A DNA stretch of 64,000 nucleotides from an uncultured Ruminococcus sp. (GTDB lineage: Bacteria > Bacillota > Clostridia > Oscillospirales > Acutalibacteraceae): NCBI GenBank assembly GCA_900543095.1, contig UQQD01000001.1, positions 41,836 through 105,835 of the forward strand, read 5' to 3'. Below the pieces are notes generated by a model. It made no database searches and was not told the origin of the DNA. It worked only from the letters and a program-made list of their open reading frames with translations. Shown here piece by piece: positions 6,185-64,000 of the stretch (positions are counted from its first letter, which is position 1; each line of letters opens with the position of its first letter). Made by a program: the position numbers and the translations under genes.

Positions 6185-6290
6185 TGTTATAATCTAAGTA
6201 CAGTTGACGCTCTTTTGCAACGGTTGCAATTTGTCGCAAGCTTCAACCATGCAAGAAAACCGTAGCATTGCTCAGATTTGAATAATTTAA
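6185..6290 (+). repeat. Family-1 modular intergenic element, copy A (extended -10 + CTAAGTACAG ... TTGCAATTTGTCGCAAGC ... TTGCTCAGATTTGAAT)
   Basis: Contains the conserved 5' box TGTTATAATCTAAGTACAG, the core palindrome and the 3' box. Lies upstream of the ClpP-like gene. Confidence 0.7.
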
Positions 6291-21605: not shown

Positions 21606-23288
21606 ATGATAAACGGCGAAATATTAAAGCAGGCAATAATCTCAGGTGCAAATAATATCAATGCACAGAAGGAACATATTAACGATCTGAATATCTTCCC
21701 CGTGCCCGACGGCGATACGGGAACAAATATGACAATGACGATTTTGGCGGCTGCAGATGCACTTTCCGATTATGACGGTGCAGACGCAGGAGAAGTTGCC
21801 GAGATAACCGCTTCATCAATGCTGAGAGGAGCAAGGGGCAATTCCGGTGTAATCACGTCTATCCTGTTCAGGGGATTTTCTCAGGGACTCAAGGGTATGC
21901 AGGAGGTCAACGGCAAAAACCTTGCCGCTGCGCTCGGAATAGGTGTTGACGGCGCATACAAGGCTGTTATGAAGCCTGCCGAGGGTACTATCCTCACGGT
22001 TGCAAGAATGGCTTATGAAGCCGGCGTTGAGGCGGCAAAGGAAAATTCCGAAGCTGTGTTTGTATGGCAAAAAATCTGTGACAAGGCTAATGAGGCTCTT
22101 GCAATCACCCCCGAACTTTTGCCCGTGCTCAAAAAGGCAGGAGTTGTTGACGCAGGCGGAAAGGGCTTGTGTACGATTTTTGAAGGTATGCTTTCCGTTA
22201 TCAGGGACGGTGTAGTAATCGAATATGACGATACGCCCGCTCAGGCAACAATGGAAACCTATGACAGTGCCGCAGCGGAATTTGACGATGATATTCGCTT
22301 TACCTACTGTACAGAGTTTATTGTGGGCAGAGATCCCGAAATCGAAACCGATCCTCAGGAATTAAAAGATTTTCTTGAAACTGTGGGCGACTGCGTTGTT
22401 GTTGTAAACGATGACGAAATAATAAAAGTTCACGTTCATACCGAAAATCCCGGCAATGTGCTTTCAAAGGGACTTGAATTCGGTCAGCTTTTGACCGTGA
22501 AAGTCGAAAATATGAAGGAACAGCATAAGAACGCAAAGTCAAAATCGAAAAAATCGGCAAAGCCCGTTAAAAAGTCAAAACCCAAGAAGATTGAAAAGGA
22601 AGTTTTCACACCTGTTGAGCCTACCGAAGAATTCGGATTTGTGGCTGTTGCCGCCGGTGAGGGAATGAAAACACTTTTCAAGGACCTTGGCTGTAACAAT
22701 GTTGTGTCCGGCGGTCAGAGTATGAATCCGAGTACAGACGATATTTACGAGGCAATACTTGCTACGCCTGCAAAATGTGTTTTTGTTCTGCCAAACAACA
22801 AGAATATAATCCTTGCCGCAGAACAGACGGTTCCTATGGTCAAGGACAGAACGGTTGTTATCGTTCCCACACGCACGATCCCTCAGGGAATGACAGCAAT
22901 GCTTAACTTTGATCCGGAAATTTCCTCAGAAAGCAACGCCCAGCTTATGATGGACGCCGCTCGCAATGTAGGCACAGGTCTTGTAACCTTTGCCGCACGC
23001 AAAAGCGATTTTGGCGGAATGAAGATAAAAGAGGGCGACATAATCGCACTTGAAAACGGTAAGCTCACTATTACCGAGAAAAATCCCGTAAAGGCGCTTG
23101 TAAAGCTTGCAAAGAATATGGTAAACCGTAATTCATCGTTTATAACATTGATATACGGTGAGGATGTTTCGGAAGAGGACGCTGAAAAAGCATACGAAGA
23201 ACTGCGTGAAAAATTCGGTTCGCACACCGATATTTCACTCGTTAAGGGTGATCAGCCTGTTTATTACTTTATTCTCAGCGTTGAATAA
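21606..23288 (+). CDS. DAK2 domain protein (YloV/FakA-like fatty acid kinase ATP-binding subunit)
   Basis: IFPVPDGDTGTNM DAK2 motif. The start is set at MINGEILK by alignment with the paralog at 40323-41963. Confidence 0.75.
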   Translation: MINGEILKQAIISGANNINAQKEHINDLNIFPVPDGDTGTNMTMTILAAADALSDYDGADAGEVAEITASSMLRGARGNSGVITSILFRGFSQGLKGMQEVNGKNLAAALGIGVDGAYKAVMKPAEGTILTVARMAYEAGVEAAKENSEAVFVWQKICDKANEALAITPELLPVLKKAGVVDAGGKGLCTIFEGMLSVIRDGVVIEYDDTPAQATMETYDSAAAEFDDDIRFTYCTEFIVGRDPEIETDPQELKDFLETVGDCVVVVNDDEIIKVHVHTENPGNVLSKGLEFGQLLTVKVENMKEQHKNAKSKSKKSAKPVKKSKPKKIEKEVFTPVEPTEEFGFVAVAAGEGMKTLFKDLGCNNVVSGGQSMNPSTDDIYEAILATPAKCVFVLPNNKNIILAAEQTVPMVKDRTVVIVPTRTIPQGMTAMLNFDPEISSESNAQLMMDAARNVGTGLVTFAARKSDFGGMKIKEGDIIALENGKLTITEKNPVKALVKLAKNMVNRNSSFITLIYGEDVSEEDAEKAYEELREKFGSHTDISLVKGDQPVYYFILSVE

Positions 23289-26987: not shown

Positions 26988-27168
26988 GTGTTATAATCTA
27001 AGTGCAGATGTCACCCGTCTTTTAGGCGGGTGACATCTCAGGATTTCAGTGGGAGTTATAATCTCCCACTAAAATCCTGAGGAGCTAAAGCTCCTTTGCA
27101 CTGCTTGCAATCTGTCGCAGGCTTTGCTCCTTGCAAGCAAAGCAAAGCCTTGCTCCGATTTAAATTAT
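26988..27168 (+). repeat. Family-1 modular element, copy B (full-length, 4 hairpins), acting as the nrdR leader
   Basis: TGTGTTATAATCTAAGTGCAG, then P1, P2, GGAGCTAAAGCTCC and GCTTGCAATCTGTCGCAGGC, ending in TTGCTCCGATTTAAAT 26 nt before nrdR. Confidence 0.75.
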
Positions 27169-27195: not shown

Positions 27196-27654
27196 ATGAA
27201 ATGTCCATACTGCGGCTATGAAGAAAGCAAAGTAATCGACTCAAGGTCGGCTGACGACGGAGAACGCATACGCAGAAGACGTGAATGTCTTAAATGCGGT
27301 AAGCGCTTTACTACTCACGAAGTAATTGAAACAGTGCCGATAATCGTAGTTAAGCGTGACAAGTCAAGAGAGGTTTTTGACCGCAATAAGCTCACAGCGG
27401 GAATATTGCGTGCCTGCGAAAAACGCCCTGTATCAATTCAGCAGATAGAGTCAATGGTTGATGAAATTGAGGCAAAGATACAAAGCAGTCTTGACCGTGA
27501 GGTCACAACAATGCAAATCGGTGAGCTTGCAATGGAACAGCTTAAGAATGTTGATGAGGTTTCATATGTTCGCTTTGCGTCTGTTTATCGCCAGTTTAAG
27601 GATATAAACACCTTTATGGATGAGCTTAACAAACTGCTCACCGAAAAGAAATAA
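27196..27654 (+). CDS. nrdR: Transcriptional repressor NrdR
   Basis: MKCPYCG zinc ribbon followed by an ATP-cone domain. Confidence 0.9.
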
Positions 27655-27800
27655 TCTAAGTGCAGATGGTCCTCGACTCTTAGGAGTCGAGGATCAATTC
27701 AAGGTGTCAGAGGGAGTTATATCTACCTCTGACACCTTGAGGAGCTGACGCTCCTTTGCACTGTTTGCAATCTGTCGCAAGCTTTGCTCCGACTTAAATG
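27649..27800 (+). repeat. Family-1 modular element, copy C (begins at the nrdR stop codon)
   Basis: AAATAATCTAAGTGCAG, P1 and P2 with altered but complementary stems, then GGAGCTGACGCTCC, TTGCAATCTGTCGCAAGC and TTGCTCCGACTTAAAT. Confidence 0.75.
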
Positions 27801-27923
27801 TTTCGCACTTTCATTTAATGTATATTATACTTATGTAAAGTATGCGGGCGATGTTTTTTCGCTCTTAGGTTATATATTCTTTAATAATAGTCAGCAAATA
27901 AGTATAAAAAAACAAATCCTATG

Positions 27924-27987
27924 GATAATATCTAAGTGCAGGCTCTGCTTCCTGTAAGCAAAGCAGAGCGTTGCCCCGATTTAAATT
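27924..27987 (+). repeat. Family-1 element, copy D (minimal: 5' box + terminal hairpin + 3' box)
   Basis: GATAATATCTAAGTGCAG, then GGCTCTGCTT...AAGCAGAGC and TTGCCCCGATTTAAAT, 26 nt before the 74-aa ORF. Confidence 0.7.
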
Positions 27988-28012
27988 ATAATCAGAATGA
28001 AAGGGCTATCTA

Positions 28013-28237
28013 ATGAAAATATATTCAATCACATATGACAAGGTTTTAAATCTGAAACGAGCCGCCGCAGAAAAATTCACTGACAAAATTCATTTTCACG
28101 ATGCCTGCGGAGGTCAGTATTTTAACCTTGAAACGCCGAACGAGGAGCTTCAAAAGTTCATAGTGGATTATTTTGAAGGACAGGGAATAGCGGCTGTATT
28201 TTCTGAGGATAATATGAATTTTCATCTTGCTAAATAA
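28013..28237 (+). CDS. Hypothetical 74-aa protein
   Basis: ORF with an RBS-like AAAGGG, flanked by element copies D and E. No family was recognised. Confidence 0.4.
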   Translation: MKIYSITYDKVLNLKRAAAEKFTDKIHFHDACGGQYFNLETPNEELQKFIVDYFEGQGIAAVFSEDNMNFHLAK

Positions 28238-28326
28238 TAATCTATGGAGCTAAAGCTCCTTTGCACCGCTTGCAATCTGTCGCAAGCGGTGCTTTTTGCA
28301 GGCAAAACATTGCTCCGATTTAAATG
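28236..28326 (+). repeat. Family-1 element, copy E (5'-truncated: starts at the GGAGCTAAAGCTCC module)
   Basis: ATAATCTATGGAGCTAAAGCTCCTTTGCACCGCTTGCAATCTGTCGCAAGCGGTGC...TTGCTCCGATTTAAAT. Confidence 0.7.
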
Positions 28327-28426
28327 ATATATTTGATAAAGCACTTTAATAAATCCGATTATTGTGGTATAATGATTATGCAGGAATGACGTGAAAGTAT
28401 AAATATATAACAAACGGAGGTAAAAT

Positions 28427-31341: not shown

Positions 31342-31944
31342 TTATTCAGGATTATTTTCCGTTGCAGTCGGCTCATTGGACTGAGCAGGTTGTTGTACCG
31401 ATGGTTGTTCAACAGTTTGTTGAGTCGGTTGCTGAACAGGCTGCTGGATTGGTTGCTGTGCAGGCTGTTGTATAGGCTGCTGAACAGGTTGCTGGATTGG
31501 TTGCTGTGCAGGCTGTTGTATAGGTTGCTGAACAGGCTGTTGTATAGGCTGTTGCATCGGTTGCTGCATAGGCTGCTGAACAGCATTTTGCGGAATTTCG
31601 CCGACTCTGTATTCAAGACGGTGCCTTAAAGGCTTGTGGCACTTCGGACAATAAACAAAGCCGTGCGGATACCATGCGCGATAACCGAGATCTTTAGTTC
31701 TGTACTCAAAGGTGCAAAGACAATATTCGCACTGAACCCTAAAAACGGGATCGGGGGTGTTAATTACGTTTACTCCGCCCTGAGTATATGTGACCTGAGG
31801 CGTACCGTTCTGAGGATACGGTGCTGCTTGAGGTGCAGGATTTTGTTGTGTGTTTGGTGCAGCCTGAAAAACAGGGGTGCCGCACTTGCTGCAAAATCTG
31901 TCTTGCGGATCAATCTGATTGCCGCATTTTGTGCAAAAACTCAT
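31342..31944 (-). CDS. Zinc-ribbon protein with QQP(I/V/A/M) tandem repeats and a second Cys-rich ribbon
   Basis: N-terminal CxxC...CxxC, a 12-fold QQPxQQPx repeat, and C-terminal CEYCLC...CPKC. Confidence 0.5.
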   Translation of the reverse strand: MSFCTKCGNQIDPQDRFCSKCGTPVFQAAPNTQQNPAPQAAPYPQNGTPQVTYTQGGVNVINTPDPVFRVQCEYCLCTFEYRTKDLGYRAWYPHGFVYCPKCHKPLRHRLEYRVGEIPQNAVQQPMQQPMQQPIQQPVQQPIQQPAQQPIQQPVQQPIQQPAQQPIQQPVQQPTQQTVEQPSVQQPAQSNEPTATENNPE

Positions 31945-32122: not shown

Positions 32123-32130
32123 TTAATTGG

Positions 32131-32290
32131 ATGATTTTAACCGGAGCAACTTTCTTATTTGTTTGCAGGTCAGAGCCTGCGACAGACTGCAAACAGTGCA
32201 GGTAGCATTATTCTCTCAGGTTTTCAGAGGAAGGTATCTGTATTTAGGCCATTATCGCCACTGATATATGCTCTTAGGTTATATTTATGC
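32131..32290 (-). repeat. Family-1 modular element, copy J (minus strand, upstream of the 31944 zinc-ribbon gene, antisense to the plus-strand leader)
   Basis: Reverse complement reads AAATATAACCTAAGAGCAT ... TGCACTGTTTGCAGTCTGTCGCAGGCTC ... TTGCTCCGGTTAAAATCAT. Confidence 0.6.
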
Positions 32291-32305: not shown

Positions 32306-35300
32306 ATGAAAAAATCGTTAAAAAAATCAGTTTCTGTTTTTTTATCCTTGATAATGGTATTATCGGTCTGCAGTGCGGGCTTTTGCGTTTCAAATGCCGC
32401 CGTGGCAGAGGAAGAACCGCTCGGAGTTCCAGTAATAGACGCTGAAGAAACAAAGACCGTGATTTCATTTGATAACGGCAGTACGGCTAAAATCAATAAT
32501 GCACCTGATGTTTCCAAGCTTGAAAATCGGCAGATAGTCGAAAATATTGCCGGCTATGAGGTTTTTTATGACGGCAACAGCATAATGGACGTTACCTTAA
32601 ACGACGTCGTGTCATCCAAAACCGCAACCGAAACCAAAGCGCCTAACGGTTATTATTCCGTCAGATTTGATATGCCCGATACCAACAAAGAAGTTTTTCT
32701 TACGGGACTTACGCCTGATAATATGGAATTGATTCAGGAAAAATTGATAGACAGCTATACAAGCGACAAAGATTTTACGCTTGAATCCTTTGACTTTATT
32801 GACACTGAAAAAACAACGGCGTCAAATGATGACGACAATCTTTGTTGGGCGGGCGTTGCTTCCAATCTTTTGCATTATACAGGCTGGGGGGCAAAGGCAG
32901 GCTATAAAACCGAGGATGATTTGTTTGACCTTTTTGTTGACAGCTTTAACGACGGCCCCTATTTTATTTCAAACGGATTGAGTTGGTTTTTTAACGGTTA
33001 TGAGAATATAATATCAAGCTTTGATCCAAATGATGCAACTGTCAAGAAACCGAACTCCGGAGCATTTTTGCCTGACTATGCCTATGATAAAGTCGGAAGT
33101 GCGAACTTCTTTAATGACGATTACAGCAATTCGATAAAACTGATAAAACAAGCCCAAAAGGATCTTAAAGACGGCAGTGGTGTCGGTATAGGCGTGGGTT
33201 GGCTAAACGGTGACAGCTTTAACGGCGCCCATGTTATTTCCTGTTGGGGTTATGTAAATAATAATGATTACAGCGAAGACGTAAAGGAGCATTACGAGGC
33301 ATTTATTATTTCCGATTCCGACTCGGATGAAAGAGCGGATTCAAACCGCCGTACAGCTCCGAATAAAATTAATATAATTCATTCATCTCCATATTCTGCG
33401 GCAGGATTCAACACATGGCTTTTTAAAGGATACGGCAGCGGATTGCTTTATTCAGTTGATTCAATAAAGCCTTACAGCGATGACCTTGAAAAGGAAACCT
33501 CACCGAGGGCAACAAAAAATAAAAACAGTACTGTGGATTTCTTGGCAGACGGCATTAATGTATCTTCCGCAGATGGAACTTCATCGGATAGCCAAAAAAC
33601 CCTTTTCAGCGATGATGAAATATATTTAACAGCTGTTGTTGCCAAATCCAACATTATAGCGTTTAACGGAGAATGTGAGTTTTCTTTTAGGATATTAAAT
33701 GATCTTGGCAACGAAGTGTATACCGCAACACAGCGAAAGAGTTTGAATACAAACAACGGAGTTAAATTTTATGTCGGTCTAACTGACAAATCTATCCGAC
33801 TTTCCCCCGGAAGCTATACGGCGGAATTAACGGTAAATCCGCAGGAAGAGATAGAGGAAGCGTATTATTACAACAATATGTGTTCAACTGAATTTGTGGT
33901 TGATACAGATGAAAAACCAAACTATGAGTTATCTGTGTCCGCCGATATAGCCGATTTTAACGATCTTGACCAAAGTGAAGCTAAGATCAGCTATCAAGTT
34001 TTTGACGAGATACTTCCCGACATATCGACTGTTGAATTGTACTTGTCTTATTATCAGGATGAAAATTGGACATTGTGGAGAAACGAAAAGAGAGGTTCTC
34101 AGGGTCTTCCGCTGGGCTCTGCGCCCGAAGCTGTTGCATCGCCTGTTTCTTCTTTTGAGGAGGATAATGCCGAGGATTCCATGTTCATTTACAAGTGTTC
34201 CGTTTCAAAAATCGGTTCAAAAGTCAAGTTTTTGGTAAAAGTAACTCTCACAAACGGCAAAACAATAAATGTATATTCTCCGGAATATGAACTGTATTAT
34301 TCAAAAATACTGTATGTTGATGACGATAAAAATACGGGTACATATTCAAATCTTGAAAACGGTGCGACAAAATTGGCAGACGGCGAACAATTCTGCTTTT
34401 CAATTAAAAACGCTTCAACATACGACAGCGGTGTAATAAGCGGTTATTATGTGTTGGCGTTAAGCAACGAAACTCAAACTGTTGATATTACCGATCCTCA
34501 GTATTTCAGCTTGTCTTACGGAGAATCAATCAATTCAATTACAATAGACAGTTGGAATGACGGTTTACCGCTCTCAGGAAAATACAGCGTACTTGTAAAT
34601 GTTTATACTGATGACGGAGTTTTTAATTCGTGCAACAATTTAGGCACACTGTGTTTCAGGGAGCAGAACGGCATAGTTGTTGATACGGCTGACGATGTTT
34701 CCGATGATTATGACGGCAAGACATCGCTGCGAGAAGCAGTTGAGTATTATATTGACCGCAATTTGGTTGATGAATCCATTACGGTTTCCGAAAATTTGAA
34801 GAATGGTTGCTTGAATCTTAATTCTCCGATAAAAATTGACGCTAAGGTAAAAATTGACGGCTCGTCAAATTACGAGCAGGGTGGCAAAAGCTATATTTCA
34901 GGTACCTATATTCAGTCTTACTCCGGAAGTTTATTCAATATAACCGACAGAGGAGAGCTTAATCTGAACGGATTGACTTTGTCAGGGGTTATGGCAGACT
35001 ACGGCGGAACGGTAAATAATAACGGCGGTAAAGCAGAATTCAGCAATGTGAGATTTTTCAATAGCTCTGCAAAAATCGCAGGCGGAGCGGTTTATTCAAG
35101 CGGAGGTATATTGACATTTAAAAATTGTACGTTCAAGTTGAGTTCTTCAGAAAACGGCGGAGCGGTTTTCCTGACTGACGGCGCAAAGGCAGATATGCTT
35201 AATTGCACTTTGTTCAGCAATATGTCAAACAACGGAATAATAACCAATAACAGCGGAAATTTGAATATTGTCAATTCAACATTCACTGAAAATACTAATT

Positions 35301-35926
35301 CTGCATCGGTAGTATCAAACAAAAACACAAATATGCTGGGATGTATCGCAACGGGCAATTACAGTACATATGACCTTGAGGGTAAAATAAATGTATATGG
35401 AAGTTTTATCGGAAAAACAGATAAATATGTAACTGCCGTAAATTGTGAAACAGGCGGTATAGATGATATTTTTGTTACTCAAAACGATGAGGTGGAATAT
35501 GGACTGATTTATAACGGCATTGAGTGCGGACTCCTATTTTACAGACCGTATATTCATGATAAAAAGGGTATAAGCGTAAGCGTTAAAAACGAAATACTCG
35601 AATATTCGGACGGCGTTCAAACATTCAGTACAAATATTCCTGCCGCATTTGACGCTGAGGATTATCAGCTTGATTCAATAGGCGATCAAAGAGGATGTGT
35701 TTACGGCAGTTTTTCATATGTGCCTTATAGGTCCGAATTCATCGGAGATGCCAATATGGACGGAAAGGTTAATATTAATGATGTAACGTGTATTCAAAAG
35801 TACCTGTCGGAATATATCACTCGTGATAAAATAGACTTAAATGCTGCAGATGTAGATATGAACGGCGTTGTCACTATAAAAGATGCAACGTGTCTGCAAA
35901 AAAGACTTACGGCGATGACGGTATGA
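32306..35926 (+). CDS. Secreted multidomain protein: putative papain-like Cys peptidase domain, right-handed beta-helix repeats, C-terminal type-I dockerin
   Basis: Signal peptide MKKSLKK... A CWAG Cys motif and GAHVISCWGY His region. NxxGGAxxxSxG beta-helix repeats. The dockerin is DANMDGKVNINDVTCIQKYL...DVDMNGVVTIKDATCLQKRL. Confidence 0.6.
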   Translation: MKKSLKKSVSVFLSLIMVLSVCSAGFCVSNAAVAEEEPLGVPVIDAEETKTVISFDNGSTAKINNAPDVSKLENRQIVENIAGYEVFYDGNSIMDVTLNDVVSSKTATETKAPNGYYSVRFDMPDTNKEVFLTGLTPDNMELIQEKLIDSYTSDKDFTLESFDFIDTEKTTASNDDDNLCWAGVASNLLHYTGWGAKAGYKTEDDLFDLFVDSFNDGPYFISNGLSWFFNGYENIISSFDPNDATVKKPNSGAFLPDYAYDKVGSANFFNDDYSNSIKLIKQAQKDLKDGSGVGIGVGWLNGDSFNGAHVISCWGYVNNNDYSEDVKEHYEAFIISDSDSDERADSNRRTAPNKINIIHSSPYSAAGFNTWLFKGYGSGLLYSVDSIKPYSDDLEKETSPRATKNKNSTVDFLADGINVSSADGTSSDSQKTLFSDDEIYLTAVVAKSNIIAFNGECEFSFRILNDLGNEVYTATQRKSLNTNNGVKFYVGLTDKSIRLSPGSYTAELTVNPQEEIEEAYYYNNMCSTEFVVDTDEKPNYELSVSADIADFNDLDQSEAKISYQVFDEILPDISTVELYLSYYQDENWTLWRNEKRGSQGLPLGSAPEAVASPVSSFEEDNAEDSMFIYKCSVSKIGSKVKFLVKVTLTNGKTINVYSPEYELYYSKILYVDDDKNTGTYSNLENGATKLADGEQFCFSIKNASTYDSGVISGYYVLALSNETQTVDITDPQYFSLSYGESINSITIDSWNDGLPLSGKYSVLVNVYTDDGVFNSCNNLGTLCFREQNGIVVDTADDVSDDYDGKTSLREAVEYYIDRNLVDESITVSENLKNGCLNLNSPIKIDAKVKIDGSSNYEQGGKSYISGTYIQSYSGSLFNITDRGELNLNGLTLSGVMADYGGTVNNNGGKAEFSNVRFFNSSAKIAGGAVYSSGGILTFKNCTFKLSSSENGGAVFLTDGAKADMLNCTLFSNMSNNGIITNNSGNLNIVNSTFTENTNSASVVSNKNTNMLGCIATGNYSTYDLEGKINVYGSFIGKTDKYVTAVNCETGGIDDIFVTQNDEVEYGLIYNGIECGLLFYRPYIHDKKGISVSVKNEILEYSDGVQTFSTNIPAAFDAEDYQLDSIGDQRGCVYGSFSYVPYRSEFIGDANMDGKVNINDVTCIQKYLSEYITRDKIDLNAADVDMNGVVTIKDATCLQKRLTAMTV

Positions 35927-35928
35927 CT

Positions 35929-36076
35929 TAAGTGCAAGTGACACCTGCCTCTAATTGCATTGCTGATTGTGGGTAAGTCGGAACATTTCTGCAATTTAAA
36001 AGCAAAGGGACTGTCGCATTTAGTGCAGAGCAAAGAAAACGCTTTCTGCATATAAATGCTACAGCCCCTTTTTGGT
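35929..36076 (+). repeat. Family-2 element, copy H (CTTAAGTGCAAG start, long hairpin GGGACTGTCGCATTTA...TAAATGCTACAGCCCC + T-run)
   Basis: It shares its 5' start with family 1 and ends in a terminator-like hairpin. An inverted homolog lies at 50020-50145. Confidence 0.6.
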
Positions 36077-36123: not shown

Positions 36124-37119
36124 TCAGATGTTAAGGAAGTCGAAGATGTATTTATAATATTCTTCAATTATAGGATTTGAGCAGGTAAAAATCGTGTGGT
36201 TTGCGTTTTTAATGGTTACAAGCCGACAGTTTTTGAGCCTTTTTGCAAGTTGGTGCTGAGGCTTTAACTTAACTACCTTGTCATTTTCCGCACTTATGAT
36301 AAGCACGTTTGTTTTAATCTTTGAGTCGAGTTTTCGGTTTAATATCTGATTTTTAACGCTCATAGACTCCATTACCCAACTGTTTGTGGGATAATTGTTT
36401 TGATAGTTTTTATCGTAAATATGAAAGAACAGCGTCCTGCGAAACCTGCTCAGGCTTAATGTAGGGTCTGAAAGCACCTGAGAGCTCGGGTTTGGATTTT
36501 TATCCTTTGCCTGCCTGAACCTTGCGTTCCAGCCGTCCTCTTCTGCGTATTTTTTGAGAGATTTGCGAACAAGGAACGCAGGAATATTGCTGGTTTGTGG
36601 AAACACAAGCGGAGATGAGAGCACTGCCTTTTGAATAGTATCGCCGTGCTTTTGAAGATAGAGCATAGCGACCGCTCCGCCCATTGAATGGGTATAGAGC
36701 CATATCGGCAGGCTTTTAAATCGTGGAAGCACAACCTCATTCATAATCTGTTCAAGGTCTGATACATAGTCAAAGAAATCGTTGATATGAGCAAGGCTTA
36801 TGTCATTAACCTCACGTCCCGATATTCCGTGACCTCTTTGGTCATAGATAAAGACATTACAGCCCATATTTAAAAAGTACCAGATATTTTCTTCGTACTT
36901 TTTCATAAATTCTGTAAAACCGTGCAATATAACGACAGTTGCTGCTGCATTTTCGGCTTCGTAATATTTGTAGCGGATAACGCAGTTGTTTTTAGCGTTT
37001 ATACTGCCGCTGTTTTCATAATTTTCAAGAGCTTTGCTGATTTTTTCTATTTTATCGGTAAACTCTTTTTCAGGTATTATTTCATATTTGTGATCAGGCT
37101 TAAAAAGCATTTTATTCAC
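36124..37119 (-). CDS. Alpha/beta hydrolase (lysophospholipase/monoglyceride lipase-like)
   Basis: HGFTE oxyanion region and HSMGG nucleophile elbow. Confidence 0.7.
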   Translation of the reverse strand: MNKMLFKPDHKYEIIPEKEFTDKIEKISKALENYENSGSINAKNNCVIRYKYYEAENAAATVVILHGFTEFMKKYEENIWYFLNMGCNVFIYDQRGHGISGREVNDISLAHINDFFDYVSDLEQIMNEVVLPRFKSLPIWLYTHSMGGAVAMLYLQKHGDTIQKAVLSSPLVFPQTSNIPAFLVRKSLKKYAEEDGWNARFRQAKDKNPNPSSQVLSDPTLSLSRFRRTLFFHIYDKNYQNNYPTNSWVMESMSVKNQILNRKLDSKIKTNVLIISAENDKVVKLKPQHQLAKRLKNCRLVTIKNANHTIFTCSNPIIEEYYKYIFDFLNI

Positions 37120-40322: not shown

Positions 40323-41963
40323 TTATTCTATTGCAAAAATATAGTCGTAGACCGGCTGTCCGCCATCTAAAAATCCACATTCAAGGAGCGGAAATTCAGC
40401 TTCTATGCGGCTTTTGAGATTTTCCGCCTCATCTATAGTAACGTTTTTACCGAAAAATGCCGTCAAAACTTCCTTTTCATCAATATTCGGAAGATTCTTT
40501 AAAAATTCTGTTACAGCGTCGTTTTTGTTATCGCACGATGAAAGTACCGTATTGCGGTCAAGCCCGATATAACTTCCCTTTTTAATGCTTATACCGTTGA
40601 TTTTAGCGTCACGGGTCGATGTTGTAATAAATCCCGATGTTACATAAGGAAGCCCAAACGACATTCCGTCAATCAGTTCTTCAACCGTTTCTGCGGAGTT
40701 ATTCATCATTGACAGCGCAGAGTAACCCTCGGCTATCGACTTTGTGGCAATAACCCGAACATCGCACTTGCTGTACATTTCTGCGGCCTGTTTAGCCGCC
40801 ATAATTATGTTTGAGTTATTCGGCAAAACGATTATGTGGTCTGCGTCAACGGCGTCAAAAGCCTTTATAAAGTCCTCGGTTGAGGGGTTGTCGGTCTGTC
40901 CGCCGTTTATTATTATATCTGCGCCAATGCCCGAAAAATATGATGAGATACCGCTGCCTGAAGCAACTGCCGCTATGACATACTTTTTATGTTTAGGTTT
41001 TTCGGCTTTCCTGTGAACGGTTTCATTGTGTTGGAGAGCCATATTCTCAATTTTCAGCGTTAAAAACTCGCCGAACCGATGGGCATAAGCAAGCACCTGT
41101 TCGGGGTTAAACGAATGAACGTGAACCTTAACTATGTTTTCGTCCTTGATCGCAACAATAGAATTCCCCAGAGTTTCAAGCTTTTTTATCATAGCGTCAA
41201 GGTCAAAATCGTCTGCACGACCGTCAGAAAACATAAGCTGTAAAATAAACTCCGTACAGTAACCGTATTCAAAGCTGCCGTCATCGGCTAATGCCATTGA
41301 ATTTTGAGTGCTTGCAAAGCCGTTGTGCGGCGTTTCAAAGCCTTTTTCCAATTTTTTGCCTTTAAGGGCAAGCTCCATACCCTCAAAAACAGCAAGAATA
41401 CCGGCTCCGCCGCTGTCAACCACGCCTGCCTCCGCAAGAACGGGCAAAAGCGACGGTGTGGAATCAAGCGATTTTTTCATAACAGGTATAAGAGCGTCAA
41501 AGCACGACTCAAAGCTGTCAAATGTGTTATAATTCTTTAAAAGAAATTCTGCTGCTTCACGAATAACCGTAAGCATAGTTCCCTCAACAGGGTGAGCAAC
41601 CGAGTCGTATGCCTGCTCAACACCGCTCTGCATTGCATTTGCAAAGTCACAAAGCGACATTTCGCAAAGCTCTTTTGCGCCGTTTGAAAATCCTCTTACA
41701 AACTGCGAAAAGATAACGCCCGAATTTCCTCTTGCGGAAAACAACATTCCGCGGGCAAACGTAGTAAGCAATACTCCGACTTTGGGCGATGAAGTATGAT
41801 TTGTAATTCCGCCGTTCATAGTCATTGCCATATTAAGCCCTGTATCGCCGTCGGGAACAGGGAAAACATTCAGCTCATCAACTGCCTGTCGGTTTGCGTG
41901 CAGATAACAGTAACCGTTGTTGAGCATTAATTCAAGAAAATTTCCGTCAATTTTTGTGTGCAT
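40323..41963 (-). CDS. DAK2 domain protein (FakA-like fatty acid kinase subunit), paralog of 21606-23288
   Basis: VFPVPDGDTGLNM motif. Encoded adjacent to two DegV genes and plsX. Confidence 0.8.
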   Translation of the reverse strand: MHTKIDGNFLELMLNNGYCYLHANRQAVDELNVFPVPDGDTGLNMAMTMNGGITNHTSSPKVGVLLTTFARGMLFSARGNSGVIFSQFVRGFSNGAKELCEMSLCDFANAMQSGVEQAYDSVAHPVEGTMLTVIREAAEFLLKNYNTFDSFESCFDALIPVMKKSLDSTPSLLPVLAEAGVVDSGGAGILAVFEGMELALKGKKLEKGFETPHNGFASTQNSMALADDGSFEYGYCTEFILQLMFSDGRADDFDLDAMIKKLETLGNSIVAIKDENIVKVHVHSFNPEQVLAYAHRFGEFLTLKIENMALQHNETVHRKAEKPKHKKYVIAAVASGSGISSYFSGIGADIIINGGQTDNPSTEDFIKAFDAVDADHIIVLPNNSNIIMAAKQAAEMYSKCDVRVIATKSIAEGYSALSMMNNSAETVEELIDGMSFGLPYVTSGFITTSTRDAKINGISIKKGSYIGLDRNTVLSSCDNKNDAVTEFLKNLPNIDEKEVLTAFFGKNVTIDEAENLKSRIEAEFPLLECGFLDGGQPVYDYIFAIE

Positions 41964-42873: not shown

Positions 42874-43821
42874 TTATTTGCCTGACTTAACCGAGGCTTC
42901 AATTTCAGCCATAATTTTCTTTTCCTGTTCAAGGTTTTCACTTATCTTTGTGCCCTGATAGAATGCTGCACAAAGTCCGGGTCCTATGCTTGAGCCGCAC
43001 GCCATACCAACAGGATTGATTATGACCTCACGGGGTGAAAAGCGTTCTTTTATCATATTCGCAAGCATATTCGCAAATTCCTTGCGTTCGGAATGTGCAA
43101 CGAAAATAATTTGCTCCTCGGGATTGATAATGGTCTTTTCCATATATTTTATTGTCATATCAAAGGCGGTTTTCTTACCCTTTGCTTTTACAATAACCTC
43201 CGAAAGTCCTTTGTCGTTAAAATCCGCCATCGGATTAACGCCGACGAGTGTTCCGAAAAGCGCTTTAAAATTTGATATTCTTCCTGTTTTTACCAAAAAG
43301 AACAAATCGTCCATTGCGCCCATCTGATGTACGGTATGTTTTGTGTTTTCTATATATTCAAAGGTTTCTTCTATTGTTGCTCCCTCGCTGCGCTTTTCGC
43401 ACGCCATTACAACCAACAATGCAAGCGCTGTGGAATAACGCAGAGAATCAATGCAAAATATTTTGCGTTCGGGATATTTTTTTTGCAGTTCTTTTGCAAC
43501 CATAACGCTTTCGTTATATGTTGCTGAAAGTCCCGATGAAATGGATATGCTGAGTACATCTTTGCCTGCGGCAAGGTTTTTTTCAAATATTTCCGTCATT
43601 TGTCCTACGGGAACGCTTGCTGTTTTGTACAGCATTTTACGTCCTTTCATTGACGAATAGTATTCATCGGGCGTCATCTTGCTCCAGTCAAGATCAATGT
43701 CCTCGCAATGTCCGTCCGGGAAATAGATGATTCCTTTCAGATAGTCGTCAATCCCAAAACGTTTTCTGAGCTCCGCCGAAAGATCGCATGAGGAATCGGG
43801 TATGATTGCAAAATTGTTCAT
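42874..43821 (-). CDS. DegV family fatty-acid-binding protein (FakB-like)
   Basis: MNNFAIIPDSSCDL N-terminus. Confidence 0.8.
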   Translation of the reverse strand: MNNFAIIPDSSCDLSAELRKRFGIDDYLKGIIYFPDGHCEDIDLDWSKMTPDEYYSSMKGRKMLYKTASVPVGQMTEIFEKNLAAGKDVLSISISSGLSATYNESVMVAKELQKKYPERKIFCIDSLRYSTALALLVVMACEKRSEGATIEETFEYIENTKHTVHQMGAMDDLFFLVKTGRISNFKALFGTLVGVNPMADFNDKGLSEVIVKAKGKKTAFDMTIKYMEKTIINPEEQIIFVAHSERKEFANMLANMIKERFSPREVIINPVGMACGSSIGPGLCAAFYQGTKISENLEQEKKIMAEIEASVKSGK

Positions 43822-44069
43822 ATTATGGTACTCCTTTTAAAAAAATAAAAAAACACTGCCAAAAATTAATGCACTATAACTCTAATTGCAGCATTTGTAT
43901 TATATCATAATAGATAAACTATTTCAACATATTTTGACTATATATGGCTTGAAAAAGGCAGTTATCCGACAAAATACCGCCTTCGGATAATTTTTATTTT
44001 TTATTTGTTGAAATAGTTTGAATGTTCTGCTAAAATAAATTTATATACGCCTTATTCGGAGGATTTAAG

Positions 44070-45023
44070 ATGTGGTGGATAATACTGATAATTATATTAG
44101 CCGTTTTATTAATAGGGGGCTTTGCGGCTATGCTGTTTGTAACCGTTCCGATTGCAAAACGCGTGTATTTTGACACGCTTGTAAGGGACAAGCCCGACAA
44201 ATGGGGGCGTGTTTGTTCGGATACCACAAACGAAGAACAGGTTGCTATGTGGAACGACGGCTGCAAATGGGCTGAACAAAACAAAAGCTGTATGCAGGAG
44301 GTCAGAATTGAAAACGACGGATTAAAGCTGTACGGAGAATATTACGACTTTGGCGGCGAAGGCTGCGTTATAATTTTGCCCGGCAGGTGCGAAAGCCTGA
44401 AATACTCTTATTATTTTGCGCCGCCGTATCAAAAAAGCGGCTGTAATGTGCTTGTAATTGATACCCGTGCTCACGGAAAAAGCGAGGGTATGTATAATAC
44501 AATAGGCACAAAGGAGAGCGGAGACCTTATCAAATGGGTTAATTTTCTTGAAGAGAATTATAAAATACGCAAAGTTTATTTTCATTCAATCTGCGTGGGA
44601 ACATCAACCGCAATGATTGTTATGACGTCGGAAAACTGTCCGAAATCGGTAAAAGGTCTTGTGACCGAGGGTTGTTTTGTTTCGTTTCGTGAGTGTTACA
44701 GAACGCATATGATATATGAAAACCGTCCTTTGTTTCCTGTTCTTGACCTTGTAATGCTATATATTCGCAGGTACGCCCACTCAAAGCTGACGCGTCAGGC
44801 GCCGATAAGGCTTGTCAAAAATATCGACCTGCCGATTTTGTTTTTATTCGGCAGGCAAGACGTGTTCTCACTGCCCGAAAAAAGCAAAAGGATTTTTGCC
44901 GCCTGCAAATCCGAGAATAAAAAAATTGTATGGTTCGACAAGGGTTCACATTCGCACCTGAGAATAAATAATATTGAAAAATATGATGATTCAGTCTGCG
45001 ATTTTATCGGCAGTATAAAATAA
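44070..45023 (+). CDS. Membrane-anchored alpha/beta hydrolase
   Basis: N-terminal TM segment and a HSICVGTS nucleophile elbow. Confidence 0.6.
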   Translation: MWWIILIIILAVLLIGGFAAMLFVTVPIAKRVYFDTLVRDKPDKWGRVCSDTTNEEQVAMWNDGCKWAEQNKSCMQEVRIENDGLKLYGEYYDFGGEGCVIILPGRCESLKYSYYFAPPYQKSGCNVLVIDTRAHGKSEGMYNTIGTKESGDLIKWVNFLEENYKIRKVYFHSICVGTSTAMIVMTSENCPKSVKGLVTEGCFVSFRECYRTHMIYENRPLFPVLDLVMLYIRRYAHSKLTRQAPIRLVKNIDLPILFLFGRQDVFSLPEKSKRIFAACKSENKKIVWFDKGSHSHLRINNIEKYDDSVCDFIGSIK

Positions 45024-48608: not shown

Positions 48609-49139
48609 ATGATTTGTCCTAATTGCGGAAATCAAATTGCAGACGGTACAGCTTTCTGCACAAACTGCGGCACACAGCTGAATAATGCTGCTCCCGAACA
48701 GCCTGCTCAGAATTATCAGCAGCCGGTTCAAAATTACCAACAACCGGCTCAGAGCTACCAACAGCCTGCTCAAAACTATCAGCAGCCGGTTCAAAACTAT
48801 CAACAGCCGGTTCAAAACTATCAACAGCCGGTTCAGCCTACGCTTATGAACGCAGAGAACCCTACTGCCGGCAAGGCTCTTGCACTCGGTATTGTTTCAC
48901 TTTGCCTTTGCTGGTTGCCTGTTGCAAGCATTATACTCGGCATATTCGCAATAAAAGCAGGTAATGAAACGCTTGCATATTCCAATCAGGGCTACAACAA
49001 ACGTCCGATGGGAATTATCGCAAAGATATTCGGTATCGTAAGTATAATTGTTTGTTCAATAATGACAATTTATTGGTTAATATTTATTATTGCTATTTGC
49101 GTTGCCGGCTCATACGCCACAACTTACTACTACTATTAA
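48609..49139 (+). CDS. Zinc-ribbon protein with QNYQQP(V/A) repeats and C-terminal DUF4190-like membrane domain
   Basis: CPNCG...CTNCG, a 7-fold repeat, and two TM helices. It is a paralog of the 31342-31944 protein. Confidence 0.55.
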   Translation: MICPNCGNQIADGTAFCTNCGTQLNNAAPEQPAQNYQQPVQNYQQPAQSYQQPAQNYQQPVQNYQQPVQNYQQPVQPTLMNAENPTAGKALALGIVSLCLCWLPVASIILGIFAIKAGNETLAYSNQGYNKRPMGIIAKIFGIVSIIVCSIMTIYWLIFIIAICVAGSYATTYYYY

Positions 49140-49317: not shown

Positions 49318-50001
49318 AATACGAATCTCAACGAAGGCTTACAGGCTGTCGGAGAGGGCGCATTCTTCTCAATAGGAGATATAAAAACCATTACAATTCC
49401 CGCAAGCGTTACATATATCGGTGATAACGCAATCGGCTACTATCCGCCCGAACACGATAATCCGTTTGTTCCGTCCGAGGTCATTCCGAATTTTATAATC
49501 TATGGAACAAGCGGCACTGAGGCTCATACTTATGCCGAGAAAAACGGAATTCAGTTTAACAGCGTTGCAATGGGAACAACTGTTAAAGGCACTGCAAAAA
49601 GTTACCTGTCAGAAAGCGATGCGGTTAAAATCCAACTTATAAAATCCGGTGCGATAGCGTATGAAACAACCGTAAAAGGCAACGTTTCCGACTATTCAAT
49701 CGCAGGCGTCGCAAACGGAACATACACAATGAAAGTTTCTAAAAATGCCCACGCCGACAGAGAATATACAGTAAAAGTTTCAAGCGCCGATGTAACGCAA
49801 AATGTTGAAATATTCCCGATGGGTGATGTAAACAACGACGGCTTTATCACTATTCTTGATGCAACTCTTGTGCAGAAGTATTTGGCTAAAGTAATAAATG
49901 AGGACTCCCTTGCGCTGGATAACGCCGATTTTGACTCAGACGATATTGTAAGAATTAATGATGCTACGGCTATTCAAAAAAACTTGCAAAAGCAGATATA
50001 A
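49318..50001 (+). pseudogene. 5'-truncated BspA-like leucine-rich-repeat + dockerin surface protein remnant
   Basis: The frame is open from the stop at 49315 and encodes LRR (GAFxxxxxIKTITIPASVTYIGDNA) before any ATG. The first ATG is at 49570. A C-terminal dockerin is present. Confidence 0.4.
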
Positions 50002-50019: not shown

Positions 50020-50145
50020 ATGGGGGACTGTCGCATTAAGATGCAGAAAGCGTTTTTGTCGCTCTGCGCTGAATGCGACAGTCCCTATCGGCTTTTACTT
50101 TCGGCACCTTCCCTACAATGTGAGGACGTTTTTTGTGCATAATGC
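50020..50145 (-). repeat. Family-2 element, copy I (inverse orientation of copy H)
   Basis: GGGGGACTGTCGCATT...AATGCGACAGTCCC hairpin. The reverse complement aligns at about 80% to 35995-36075. Confidence 0.6.
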
Positions 50146-52383: not shown

Positions 52384-52503
52384 GTTATATTATAATCTAA
52401 GTACAGATGTCCTTCGCCGATTAGGCAGAGGGTTGTTATATCAGGGCTTGCAATCTGTCGCAAGCCTTGCTTCTTGTGAGTAAAGCGTTGCTCCGATTTA
52501 AAC
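52384..52503 (+). repeat. Family-1 modular element, copy F, acting as leader of the 52544 gene
   Basis: TGTTATATTATAATCTAAGTACAG, a P1-like hairpin, GGCTTGCAATCTGTCGCAAGCC, and TTGCTCCGATTTAAAC. Confidence 0.7.
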
Positions 52504-52543
52504 TACGATGAATTAATATGGAATGATATTGGAGGAAAAGGTA

Positions 52544-61724: not shown

Positions 61725-63128
61725 ATGGCAAAGAAAATTAAAATTACCGAAACTGCCCTTCGTGACGCCCACCAGTCGCTTATTGCAACAAGGATGACAA
61801 CAGAAGAAATGCTTCCGATCCTTGACAAGCTCGACAAGGTTGGCTACTATTCGCTTGAATGTTGGGGCGGTGCAACCTATGATGCGTGTCTCAGATTTTT
61901 AAATGAGGACCCGTGGCAGAGATTGCGTACAATCAGAGAGCATTGCCCGAACACAAAGCTTCAAATGCTTTTCAGGGGTCAGAATATGCTTGGATACCGT
62001 CACTATGCCGATGACTGCGTTGAATATCTTGTTCAGCGTTCGATCGCAAACGGTATTGATATAATCCGTATTTTTGACGCATTAAATGACATCAAAAATC
62101 TTCAGACGGCTATCAAGGCGGCAAAAAAAGAGGGCGGTCACGCTCAGGTTGCTATAAGCTATACCACAGGTCCGGTTTTCACCGATGAATACTATGTTGA
62201 TTATGCAAAGAGAATTGCCGATGCAGGTGCAGATTCTATCTGTATTAAGGATATGGCGGCTTTGCTTACACCGTCAAGAACCTACAGCCTTGTAAGGGCT
62301 ATCAAATCGGTGCTTCCCGAGATGCCTGTACAGCTTCATACTCACTACACATCGGGACTTGCCTCAATGTGCTTGTTAAAGGGTGTTGAAGCAGGCGCAG
62401 ACGCTATTGATACGGCAATCAGCCCGCTTGCGCTGGGTACATCGCACGCTCCTACGGAGTCGATGATTGCCGCTTTGAGCGGTACAGAGTACGACACAGG
62501 ACTTGACATAAAGGATTTCACGGATATTCGTGCTTACTTTATGACGCTTCGTGAAAAATATATCGAATCGGGACTTCTTGATACAAAGATGCTTGCAACC
62601 GACGCAAAAGCTCTTATCTATCAGGTTCCCGGCGGTATGCTTTCAAATCTGCTTTCACAGTTAAAGCAGGCAGGTAAAGAGGATCAGCTCGACAAGGTAC
62701 TTGAAGAAGTTCCGAGAGTAAGGAAGGATTCGGGCTATCCGCCGCTTGTTACTCCGACATCTCAGATTGTAGGCACTCAGGCTGTATTCAATGTAATTAC
62801 AGGCGAGCGCTACAAGATTTGCACAAATGAATTCAAAGGTCTTGTTGCAGGCGAATACGGTACAACTCCGATGCCGATTGACCCTGAATTCCAGAAAAAG
62901 ATAATCGGCGACCAAAAGGTTATCACCTGCCGCCCGGCAGATCTGCTTGAGCCTGAACTTGACAAGCTGAGAAGCGAAATTTCCGAATGGATTGAACAGC
63001 CTGAGGACGTTCTCTCATATGCTCAGTTCCCAAAGGTTGCAATAGATTTCTTCAAAAAGAGAAGAAATGCCGAGGTCGGTATTAACGGTGACAAACTCGA
63101 TTCCGAAAATATGATTCACCCCGTTTAA
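61725..63128 (+). CDS. Pyruvate/oxaloacetate carboxyltransferase subunit (5S / OadA-like) lacking biotinyl domain
   Basis: MAKKIKITETALRDAHQSL HMGL-like TIM barrel. No C-terminal AMKM domain. Confidence 0.8.
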   Translation: MAKKIKITETALRDAHQSLIATRMTTEEMLPILDKLDKVGYYSLECWGGATYDACLRFLNEDPWQRLRTIREHCPNTKLQMLFRGQNMLGYRHYADDCVEYLVQRSIANGIDIIRIFDALNDIKNLQTAIKAAKKEGGHAQVAISYTTGPVFTDEYYVDYAKRIADAGADSICIKDMAALLTPSRTYSLVRAIKSVLPEMPVQLHTHYTSGLASMCLLKGVEAGADAIDTAISPLALGTSHAPTESMIAALSGTEYDTGLDIKDFTDIRAYFMTLREKYIESGLLDTKMLATDAKALIYQVPGGMLSNLLSQLKQAGKEDQLDKVLEEVPRVRKDSGYPPLVTPTSQIVGTQAVFNVITGERYKICTNEFKGLVAGEYGTTPMPIDPEFQKKIIGDQKVITCRPADLLEPELDKLRSEISEWIEQPEDVLSYAQFPKVAIDFFKKRRNAEVGINGDKLDSENMIHPV

Positions 63129-63134
63129 TGTTTG

Positions 63135-63233
63135 TTTAAATCTGAGCAACGCTTGCGGTACTTGCGCTGTTTGTAATCTGGTCGCAAGCTCTGCACTTTG
63201 CAGGTAAAGCAAAGCCTTGCTCCGATTTAAATT
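63135..63233 (+). repeat. Family-1 element, copy G (diverged 5' box)
   Basis: AATCTGAGCAACG ... TTTGTAATCTGGTCGCAAGC ... AAAGCAAAGCC TTGCTCCGATTTAAAT. Confidence 0.6.
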
Positions 63234-63243
63234 CGATAAAAAA

Positions 63244-63310
63244 TAAAAGCTATAATTCATATCATCTCCATCATGGTTGCTGATTATGAATTATAGCTTT
63301 TTGTTTTGCG
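63244..63310. terminator. Bidirectional terminator (perfect 17-bp inverted repeat + T-run)
   Basis: AAAAGCTATAATTCATA ... TATGAATTATAGCTTTTTGTTTT between convergent genes. Confidence 0.7.
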
Positions 63311-63356
63311 CTGCGCTAAATGCGGCAGTCGTTTTTATGTGTTTTGAAAGCAGAAA

Positions 63357-64000
63357 TTATTTGTTTCCTGCAATGTGCTTTTGAATTGCCGTTGCATCCG
63401 AAACGCTTATTTTGCCGTCACGATTAAAGTCGGCATTGCGTTTTGCCTTGTCGCTGAGTTCTGTTTTTTGAGCAATGTACTTTTGAATTTCCGTTGCGTC
63501 TCTGACGTTGATTTTTCCGTTGAGATCAACGTCGCCGAGTAAAGCGTCTGTTTTGGTTGTAACGGCTTTAATAACAAATGTTCCGCCGATGTCATCGCCG
63601 TTGTTCGTTTTATACCAGTCCATAAGGTCGGTCATAGTGTTGTCGTAATAAATATAGCTTTCATCGTATTTTGAATCGTTGATGAATACATAAGTGCCCT
63701 TTTGACTGTTGACAAGCCATTCGCCTACGCCTATGGAATTGTTTTTGCCGATGTTTGATGAATTAATATCCACCGCTATTGAGCCTGAGCCTTCAGGCAG
63801 TTCAAAATCGTCAATATCGGCGCAGATATATCCGTTGTAATCAACCGTTCCGCTGAAGAGCTTTTCCCACTCTGCCTTGTCCGAAGAGGGTTTGTCGGAA
63901 ACAGTCGGTACATAATAAATATCATAGTCGGCGCCCAGACATTCGGTTTTGAATATAACCTTGTCAAGGGTGCTGTAGTCATCGGAAAAATCAAATTTGT
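63357..64000 (-). CDS. Dockerin-containing secreted protein, N-terminus beyond window
   Basis: C-terminal dockerin GDVDLNGKINVRDATEIQKYI...DFNRDGKISVSDATAIQKHI. The frame stays open upstream past 63773 to the window end. Confidence 0.6.
   Translation of the reverse strand, partial: KFDFSDDYSTLDKVIFKTECLGADYDIYYVPTVSDKPSSDKAEWEKLFSGTVDYNGYICADIDDFELPEGSGSIAVDINSSNIGKNNSIGVGEWLVNSQKGTYVFINDSKYDESYIYYDNTMTDLMDWYKTNNGDDIGGTFVIKAVTTKTDALLGDVDLNGKINVRDATEIQKYIAQKTELSDKAKRNADFNRDGKISVSDATAIQKHIAGNK

Follow-up and report, generated by a model that had tools for sequence, protein, structure and literature searches.

A palindromic interspersed repeat of uncultured gut Clostridia, with internally deleted copies that probably serve as terminators beside dockerin genes

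Two hairpins lying in inverted orientation in the genome of an uncultured Ruminococcus sp. are probably miniature forms, lacking the interior, of a palindromic repeat that is non-autonomous and occurs in uncultured Acutalibacteraceae-like gut Clostridia, and in their present positions they are likely to serve as terminators. The hairpins, called copy A and copy B below, were found in a stretch of 64,000 nucleotides of contig UQQD01000001.1, which is referred to as the window throughout. It is most likely that they act as terminators rather than as small RNA genes. The element to which they belong constitutes an undescribed small interspersed repeat family of uncultured gut Clostridia; a search of the literature for such a repeat in Ruminococcus or Firmicutes found nothing specific, and Rfam gave no match in the window at the gathering score and none on the element at E <= 1 in six long-form loci.

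Results

The inverted pair in the window

An earlier reading of the window, made from its letters alone (the sequence-only reading hereafter), had described the regions 35929-36076 and 50020-50145, of 148 nt and 126 nt, as an inverted pair of a second repeat family. The pair itself is real: a repeat search of the window returned inverted arms at 36006-36068 and 50024-50086 that are 63 nt long and 86% complementary, and the 27-nt core GCAGAGCNANNAAAACGCTTTCTGCAT occurs exactly twice in the window, compared with an expectation of 0 from 100 shuffles. It is shorter than had been claimed, as pairwise alignment of 230 nt around each copy gave no alignment beyond the hairpin of 62-63 nt. Each copy forms the long hairpin that had been noticed, with an outer stem GGGACTGTCGCATT/AATGCGACAGTCCC, an inner stem GCAGA/TCTGC, a total stem length of 22-24 bp and a conserved loop sequence, and in both the fold is much more stable than that of shuffled sequence (z = -5.1 for copy A and -7.5 for copy B). 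The two copies differ from each other at 14% of positions, compared with an identity of 98-99% between strains for the genes that lie between them.

The stem of copy A is followed directly by TTTTT on the plus strand, in agreement with the hairpin and T-run that the sequence-only reading had placed there, and by TTTGCTTTTAAATT on the minus strand. The minus strand folds better (-30.4 kcal/mol, versus -27.4 for the plus strand), having G.U pairs where the plus strand has A.C. A simple terminator scan missed copy A, the loop of which is over the limit of the scan. The stem of copy B is followed by TATCGGCTTTTAC, so that no T-run directly adjoins it, and the terminator scan was empty there; a weak native hairpin with a T6 run, common to all strains, lies ~20 nt beyond the copy. 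Two open reading frames (ORFs) that read through the copies (Table 1) encode a common peptide, G[AT]VA[FL].CRKRF..SALNATVP, which is specified by the nucleotide repeat itself. As had been suspected, these two similar "proteins" are artefacts, and in genome annotation the hairpins are to be entered as repeat or terminator features, not as genes.

Table 1. Positions of the element, the neighbouring genes, the family-1 repeats and the spurious ORFs in the window
Feature	Position	Strand	Remarks
Copy A, 62-nt miniature element	36007..36068	-	terminal stems P1 and P2 only
Copy B, 62-nt miniature element	50024..50085	+	perfect 14-bp outer stem
Copy C, relic of the long form	63243..63332	+	partial: 3' half of the long form on the folding strand
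Dockerin gene, 1206 aa, dockerin C-terminal	32306..35926	+	Pfam Dockerin_1, E = 4.3e-10; copy A 80 nt past stop
Alpha/beta hydrolase gene, convergent with dockerin gene	36124..37119	-	Pfam Hydrolase_4, E = 1.2e-40
Dockerin gene, 143 aa as read here	49570..50001	+	Pfam Dockerin_1
C1-peptidase-dockerin gene, 3' end (538 aa in related strains L029-L034)	63357..63773	-	Pfam Dockerin_1, E = 7.5e-14
Degenerate family-1 copy between dockerin stop codon and copy A	35925..36003	+	start TATGACTTAAGTGCAAGTGACACC and end CATTTCTGCAATTTAAAAG align
Family-1 copy	6187-6286	+	
Family-1 copy	26991-27168	+	
Family-1 copy	27649-27802	+	
Family-1 copy	27930-27990	+	
Family-1 copy	28232-28328	+	
Family-1 copy	32130-32215	-	
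Family-1 copy	52390-52506	+	
Family-1 copy	63128-63236	+	
Spurious ORF, 79 aa	35928..36167	-	reads through copy A
Spurious ORF, 82 aa	49958..50206	+	reads through copy B

Dockerin neighbours and copy C

Copies A and B follow genes with Dockerin_1 C-termini (ending at 35926 and 50001), as the sequence-only reading had stated. Copy A lies 55 nt past the stop of the convergent hydrolase gene, whose sense strand is the better-folding strand of the copy, and copy B begins 22 nt past the stop of its dockerin gene and ends 159 nt ahead of the next gene. The third copy, C, starts 24 nt past the stop of the third dockerin gene, which encodes a C1 peptidase with a dockerin. It retains a bidirectional terminator hairpin (~63246-63302), which would be the tip of stem A (helix A of the long form, see below), followed by TTTTTGTTTTGC and then by the 3' arm GCGCTGCGCTAAATGCGGCAGTCG at 63308-63331, and the place of its 5' half is taken by a family-1 copy. 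With four mismatches to the end consensus it is found by nhmmer at E = 1.5e-6, and it is kept in six other strains.

A scan for the calcium-binding-loop motif found exactly three dockerin genes in the window, and all three have a copy 22-80 nt from the stop, for which a post hoc hypergeometric calculation (~50 genes, five gene ends adjoining copies) gives a chance of ~5e-4. The supposition that copies might always follow dockerin genes thus holds for every dockerin gene of the window, and fails in other genomes, where none of the eight loci checked has a dockerin gene beside the element. The association in this window counts against the preferred explanation of the element, which does not account for it. 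Co-duplication of dockerin modules with the element was considered and rejected, since copy B is inverted relative to copies A and C and the three dockerin peptides have diverged. The dockerin gene before copy B itself varies between strains, being read as 143 aa here, as one ORF of 232 aa, or as a split pair of 119 and 113 aa.

The element in other genomes

A search for the pattern of the 5' arm, in which each species was represented by one genome, gave genuine matches in an uncultured Eubacteriales genome from the Hadza gut (CAKTEU01, CAKTEU hereafter; four matches on four contigs) and in three Acutalibacteraceae assemblies with one match each. The remaining pattern matches lay in GC-rich coding sequence and were counted as chance. 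Both conserved ends, in the expected orientation, are present in every genuine match, giving bounded units of 221, 159, 216 and 223 nt, and the ends form imperfect terminal inverted repeats of ~17-24 nt (GGGRCTGTCGSATTTAG..GCAGA at both). The four CAKTEU copies, all of 221 nt, have unrelated flanks, and three of them are 100% identical, with one mismatch in the fourth. Copies A and B consist of ~29 nt from the beginning of this long form joined to ~33 nt from its end, and the loop of copy A is the exact remainder of a deletion between two of its AAAGA repeats; both represent the same element with its interior deleted.

Protein searches with the spuriously encoded peptides added 20 further ORF clusters, one of them labelled Acutalibacteraceae. 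Several of these span tandem copies and one is a truncated ISL3 transposase ORF. At one locus (L040), a fifth near-identical copy of 221 nt adjoins an ISL3 transposase remnant, the ORF of which runs directly into the copy. The remnant (L040 6001-6946) has 265 aa with a zinc ribbon and the C-terminal end of the DDE domain and lacks a stop of its own; a phage-type integrase gene lies ~1 kb upstream of the copy, with the remnant in between, and no integrase directly adjoins a copy in the fetched loci. As to tandem arrangements, a divergent variant (L049 3960-4440) comprises 2.5 head-to-tail units with a period of 189 nt; a normal terminator precedes it, and its neighbours are the genes for a DUF1846 protein and for glycogen phosphorylase. 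The spurious ORFs P0182, P0187, P0192 and P0194 imply similar structures. Two RNA features were also recorded in the fetched loci, namely a group II intron ~6 kb from the element (L015 763-1080, minus strand; Rfam D1-D4 domains, E = 8.6e-27) and a weak, sub-threshold match to the Gut-1 RNA (L040 11644-11714, minus strand; 36.5 bits against a gathering score of 50).

Copy number is low, with 2-5 matches per genome. A pattern scan of metagenomes returned only another strain of the window organism, whose assembly has two full copies only, and chance matches. Viral contigs gave no match in two pattern scans, plasmids and phages none in BLAST searches with the 221-nt form, and an nhmmer search with both arms detected no further copies in 396 kb of fetched loci. 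The loci from the genome, metagenome and viral scans, and likewise the plasmids and phages, contained no autonomous insertion sequence that shares these ends, nor was a transposase or another mobilising enzyme found linked to the element.

Fold and strand specificity of the long form

A consensus fold was derived from eight long forms (alignment A11). It has four helices: the closing stem P1/P2, formed by both ends; helix B, with a conserved tip and a sequence that is conserved across species; and helix A, which has a species-dependent tip, in many cases a terminator-like hairpin flanked by A- and T-runs. Over its 57 pairs, 98% of the cells are paired and 14 pairs have changed on both sides; none of 500 shuffles reaches either value, and slid 3' partners leave at most three compensated pairs. 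On the strand that reads GGGGCTGTCG... first, G.U occurs in 13 pair columns and A.C in two; read from the complementary strand, the same G.U positions are A.C mismatches. This asymmetry points to selection on a folded single strand. We favour DNA over RNA as the form in which that strand acts, because it is antisense to both neighbours at three of the 11 loci, because several copies contain a terminator upstream of the 3' arm, and because promoter conservation is absent.

The same observations bear on the alternative that the element is a functional structured RNA, i.e. a cis-acting 3'-UTR element or a small RNA. The four-helix fold would then be the product itself and the copies would be paralogous RNA genes or regulatory modules, which here would be tied to dockerin (amylosome/cellulosome) genes. 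The strong covariation with its one-strand G.U bias, the sequence conservation of helix B across species and the presence of a copy 22-80 nt from the stop of every dockerin gene in the window all speak for it. We nevertheless regard this explanation as unlikely. At L008, L013 and L014 both neighbouring genes are encoded on the strand opposite to the folding strand, and the internal terminator that precedes the 3' arm in several long forms means that the closing stem would often not be transcribed. The lack of a conserved promoter, the missing dockerin neighbours at the eight loci in other genomes and the absence of Rfam matches argue in the same direction, as does the fact that two of the four helices are missing from the window copies, and near-identical copies of 221 nt with unrelated flanks indicate copying, not paralogy. 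The preferred reading as a mobile palindromic repeat has a difficulty of its own here, in that the conservation of helix B across species exceeds the need of a purely selfish element.

Insertion sites and strains without the element

All 11 single-copy loci (ten tabulated plus L040) lie 0-80 nt past an upstream stop codon, in mixed orientations, and four of them are flanked by convergent gene pairs. T-runs follow copy A and the copies at L006, L008, L013 and L015. The orientation of the folding strand relative to the neighbouring genes is likewise mixed, with no hint of a bias towards replication strand or transcription. None of the five near-identical copies (those of CAKTEU and L040) has a target-site duplication.

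At two loci the element stands in the place of a native hairpin, one of which is a terminator and the other of which lacks a T-run. Between a convergent pair of hydrolase and serpin genes in CAKTEU, relatives read AAACGA, GAGCGTCCGATGAGGGCGCTC and TTTTTAT where CAKTEU reads AAACGA, the element and TTTTTAT, which is an exact swap of the native terminator stem-loop with the A- and T-tracts retained. Between mcsB and clpC, relatives of CAKTEU (McsB 91-93% identical) carry a short, unrelated GC hairpin within the same flanks, ATAATCGG and TGTTMAAAAT, and a third relative has yet another hairpin. Three related species (L022, L024 and L025) show three unrelated hairpins at this one position, where CAKTEU has the element; a hairpin stays in place at this site, and its sequence is exchanged.

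Other strains of the species (L026-L028 and L035-L038) lack copy B, and their intergenic region has 102 nt, compared with 243 nt here. The right junction coincides with the end of the element, the next ~23 nt being diverged, while at the left junction 16 nt correspond to 26 nt, the dockerin stop codon included; that stop thus falls inside the segment which differs between strains with and without copy B. The strains without the copy have no stop at the dockerin end, and their ORF extends for 25 codons through the downstream T-run. A fresh insertion and the import of an old allele by recombination would fit this polymorphism equally well. Copy A is base-for-base identical in another strain (L039), on a scaffold without copy B. 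An explanation by inversion of the 14 kb that separate the two copies was rejected, as the gene order is unchanged in the strain without B.

Another alternative is that the element is a MITE of the classical type, mobilised by the cut-and-paste action of a DDE transposase such as one of the ISL3 family. Such an origin would account for imperfect terminal inverted repeats of ~17-24 nt in a small unit that has no coding capacity and exists in multiple near-identical copies, one of which adjoins an ISL3 transposase remnant. The ends of ISL3 and IS6 presumably begin similarly to the element, with GGCTCTT... and GGTTCTGTTGCAAA, respectively. Even so, we think it improbable: target-site duplications are missing from all five near-identical copies, both empty-site comparisons show replacement of a native hairpin in place of insertion plus duplication, and covariation with a strand-specific G.U bias is unexpected if the ends are recognised solely in the double-stranded state. 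The terminal repeat at L040 reads away from the transposase gene, so that the gene lies outside the element. An origin from IS6/IS26 or ISL3 was accordingly set aside, there being no duplications and the only ISL3 remnant found lying outside the element.

Family 1 and other repeats in the window

The sequence-only reading had treated copy A together with the sequence upstream of it as one unit ("copy H"), whose start, CTTAAGTGCAAGTGACACC, was said to resemble that of another repeat, family 1. The resemblance was borne out: the motifs that begin and end family 1 can both be aligned to 35925-36003. Because A and B do not align outside the hairpin, and because 35925-36003 aligns to family 1, "copy H" consists of two adjacent units, a relic of family 1 and a hairpin of family 2, the element described here. 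At 35929-36003 the relic reads TATGAC where intact family-1 copies have TATAAT, so that the -10 box is lost, and a promoter scan found no plus-strand promoter ahead of it.

Taken further, the proposal of a small transcription unit would make each copy an independently transcribed small RNA gene of ~150 nt that contains both a start (CTTAAGTGCAAG...) and a terminator. Intact family-1 copies do start inside a good sigma-70-like -10 box, and copy A indeed has a family-1-like start ahead of it and a hairpin with a T-run at its end. The proposal is nonetheless very improbable, given that the 5' part is a separate, degenerate family-1 copy with TATGAC for TATAAT and an empty promoter scan, that copy B has no such 5' part, the hairpin being all that the A and B regions have in common, and that in other genomes the element stands alone, self-contained, after stop codons and in either orientation. 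A separate small transcription unit at copies A and B is not supported by these comparisons.

Family 1 is a second, denser repeat, with 8-9 copies in the 64 kb, all but one of which are on the plus strand, ahead of or between plus-strand genes. Its consensus has the start TAATCTAAGTGCAG, the mid motif TTGCAATCTGTCGCAAGC and the end TTGCTCCGATTTAAAT, with internal hairpins that vary in number. The copies at 6190, 26994 and 52393 look like shared promoter-proximal leaders, because their first bases belong to a sigma-70-like -10 box that has a good -35 ahead of it; others begin directly at a stop codon. The short family-1 motifs CTGTCGCA, TAGATGCAGA / TAAGTGCAGA and TTGCTC...TAAAT are reminiscent of family 2. 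The two families as parts of one larger unit were considered and rejected, as no family-1 motifs lie beside the element in other genomes.

Four further repeats were recorded in the window. Two are coding tandem repeats, one with a period of 12 nt and ~18 units (31378-31595, in the minus-strand ORF 31342..31944), the other with a period of 21 nt and at least five QQPAQNY-like units (48697-48843, in the zinc-ribbon protein gene 48609..49139). A 64-nt inverted match that is 78% complementary joins two coding regions 20 kb apart (21679-21742 and 41818-41881), which are probably a paralogous gene pair. A 35-nt AT-rich inverted repeat (43898-43932 and 44003-44037) lies in the divergent intergenic region between a DegV-family gene (42874..43821, minus strand) and a hydrolase gene (44070..45023, plus strand).

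A local origin of the pair as an unlikely alternative

The idea that A and B are ordinary gene-specific terminators related through a local inverted duplication in this 14-kb region, which the sequence-only reading had reserved for an element restricted to the two loci and which would suit two gene-end hairpins present as the only full copies in the one other assembly of the organism (reached by the metagenome scan), is hardly credible. At least five other genomes have the same ends and fold at unrelated loci, the divergence of 14% between A and B contrasts with a gene identity of 98-99% between strains, and one strain has A without B.

Discussion

On the explanation that we prefer, the element would spread to new sites by copying of a folded single strand, probably of DNA, through a structure-specific enzyme that may be supplied in trans. 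Copies A and B would have kept only P1 and P2. Copy A now probably serves as the bidirectional terminator of the convergent dockerin and hydrolase genes, a role suggested by the T-runs that follow its stem on both strands; copy B would provide its dockerin gene with a strong hairpin at the 3' end, and copy C would be a decayed half copy. Points against this explanation are the low copy number per genome, the imperfect junctions of copy B and the failure to find a linked mobilising enzyme or an autonomous copy with these ends in the sequences searched. Two observations count against the terminator reading of copy B, namely that its stem has no T-run and that a weak native terminator lies further downstream.

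A more far-reaching version, which we put forward tentatively, is that the family represents a new kind of structure-specific mobile element, one that, in place of inserting between bases, swaps places with an existing terminator or intergenic hairpin, keeping the flanking A- and T-tracts and making no duplication. The folded single strand would be recognised by the enzyme through its four-helix shape, and the terminal ~30 nt of each end, to which copies A and B are reduced, might be the minimal substrate. If this swap reading is true, the enrichment beside dockerin genes here would reflect a preference for the terminators of those genes.

Comparison with known elements

SPRITE and REPIN are the elements closest in kind. 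We place the element as a new family among the small interspersed palindromic or terminator-like repeats and under no named family, because it does not make the duplications of MITEs, does not reach the copy number of REPINs and does not have the core sites of attC. Integron attC sites were considered and rejected: the RYYYAAC / GTTRRRY core sites are absent, the ends being GGGRCTGTCG / CGACAGYCCC, and the copies are dispersed, not arrayed.

With bidirectional intrinsic terminators, the element shares the GC-containing hairpin of copy A, lying between convergent genes with T-runs on both strands, and at two loci in other genomes it sits exactly where a native hairpin was. Unlike them, it has stems of 22-24 bp, a conserved loop and the same sequence at unrelated genes and in different species, and in copy B the stem is not directly followed by a T-run.

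Bacterial MITEs such as RUP, BOX and Correia are short, non-coding, intergenic units with terminal inverted repeats and stable structure that can terminate transcription (review PMC10969869). The present element resembles them in its terminal inverted repeats, in its non-coding length of 62-223 nt and in its multiple copies with unrelated flanks (four or five near-identical ones in one species), and just as MITEs cluster with other repeats, families 1 and 2 do so here. MITEs, however, make target-site duplications and match the ends of known insertion sequences, whereas none of five near-identical copies shows a duplication and no partner insertion sequence was found in the scanned loci, plasmids and phages.

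REPINs consist of two conserved inverted ends with a variable spacer, and compensatory changes preserve the hairpin that these form (Bertels and Rainey 2011, PMC3116915). As non-autonomous sequences outside genes, they are considered to be mobilised in single-stranded form by a RAYT transposase (PMC3116915). The conserved inverted ends and the spacer of our element likewise fold into a long hairpin with compensatory changes, and copy C is comparable to the singlet relics of REPINs. On the other hand, the copies of a REPIN number tens to hundreds, chiefly in proteobacterial genomes with a single-copy RAYT, compared with 2-5 copies per genome here; the arms of the element are longer, and only one of them has a small palindrome of its own. 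No RAYT (Y1 HUH transposase) gene was seen in stretches of up to ~21 kb around the matches.

SPRITE, a terminator-like repeat of a Firmicute (S. pneumoniae) with ~30 copies per genome, is a long duplex followed by a U-rich tract (2011, PMC3049150). Its copies are found near gene 3' ends, with an enrichment in convergent intergenic regions, neither a target-site duplication nor a matching insertion-sequence end has been established for it, and its co-option as a terminator has been suggested (PMC3049150). By description, which is the basis of this comparison rather than sequence, our element is similar in its low copy number, its long duplex with a T-rich tract behind it in several copies, its position near gene 3' ends, its occurrence between convergent genes at four of 11 loci and its lack of duplications. 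It differs in structure, a SPRITE being a single AT-rich duplex of 18 bp with AAAA/TTTT ends, whereas the element has specific GC-containing ends of 17-24 nt, a four-helix fold that shows covariation and a length of 62-223 nt; it differs also in showing the replacement of native hairpins in empty-site comparisons. To repeats of this type the new family adds an unusually well-supported fold and two clean cases of exact native-hairpin replacement, and if such replacement is general, it bears on how terminator-like repeats such as SPRITE spread and on the turnover of terminators between close relatives.
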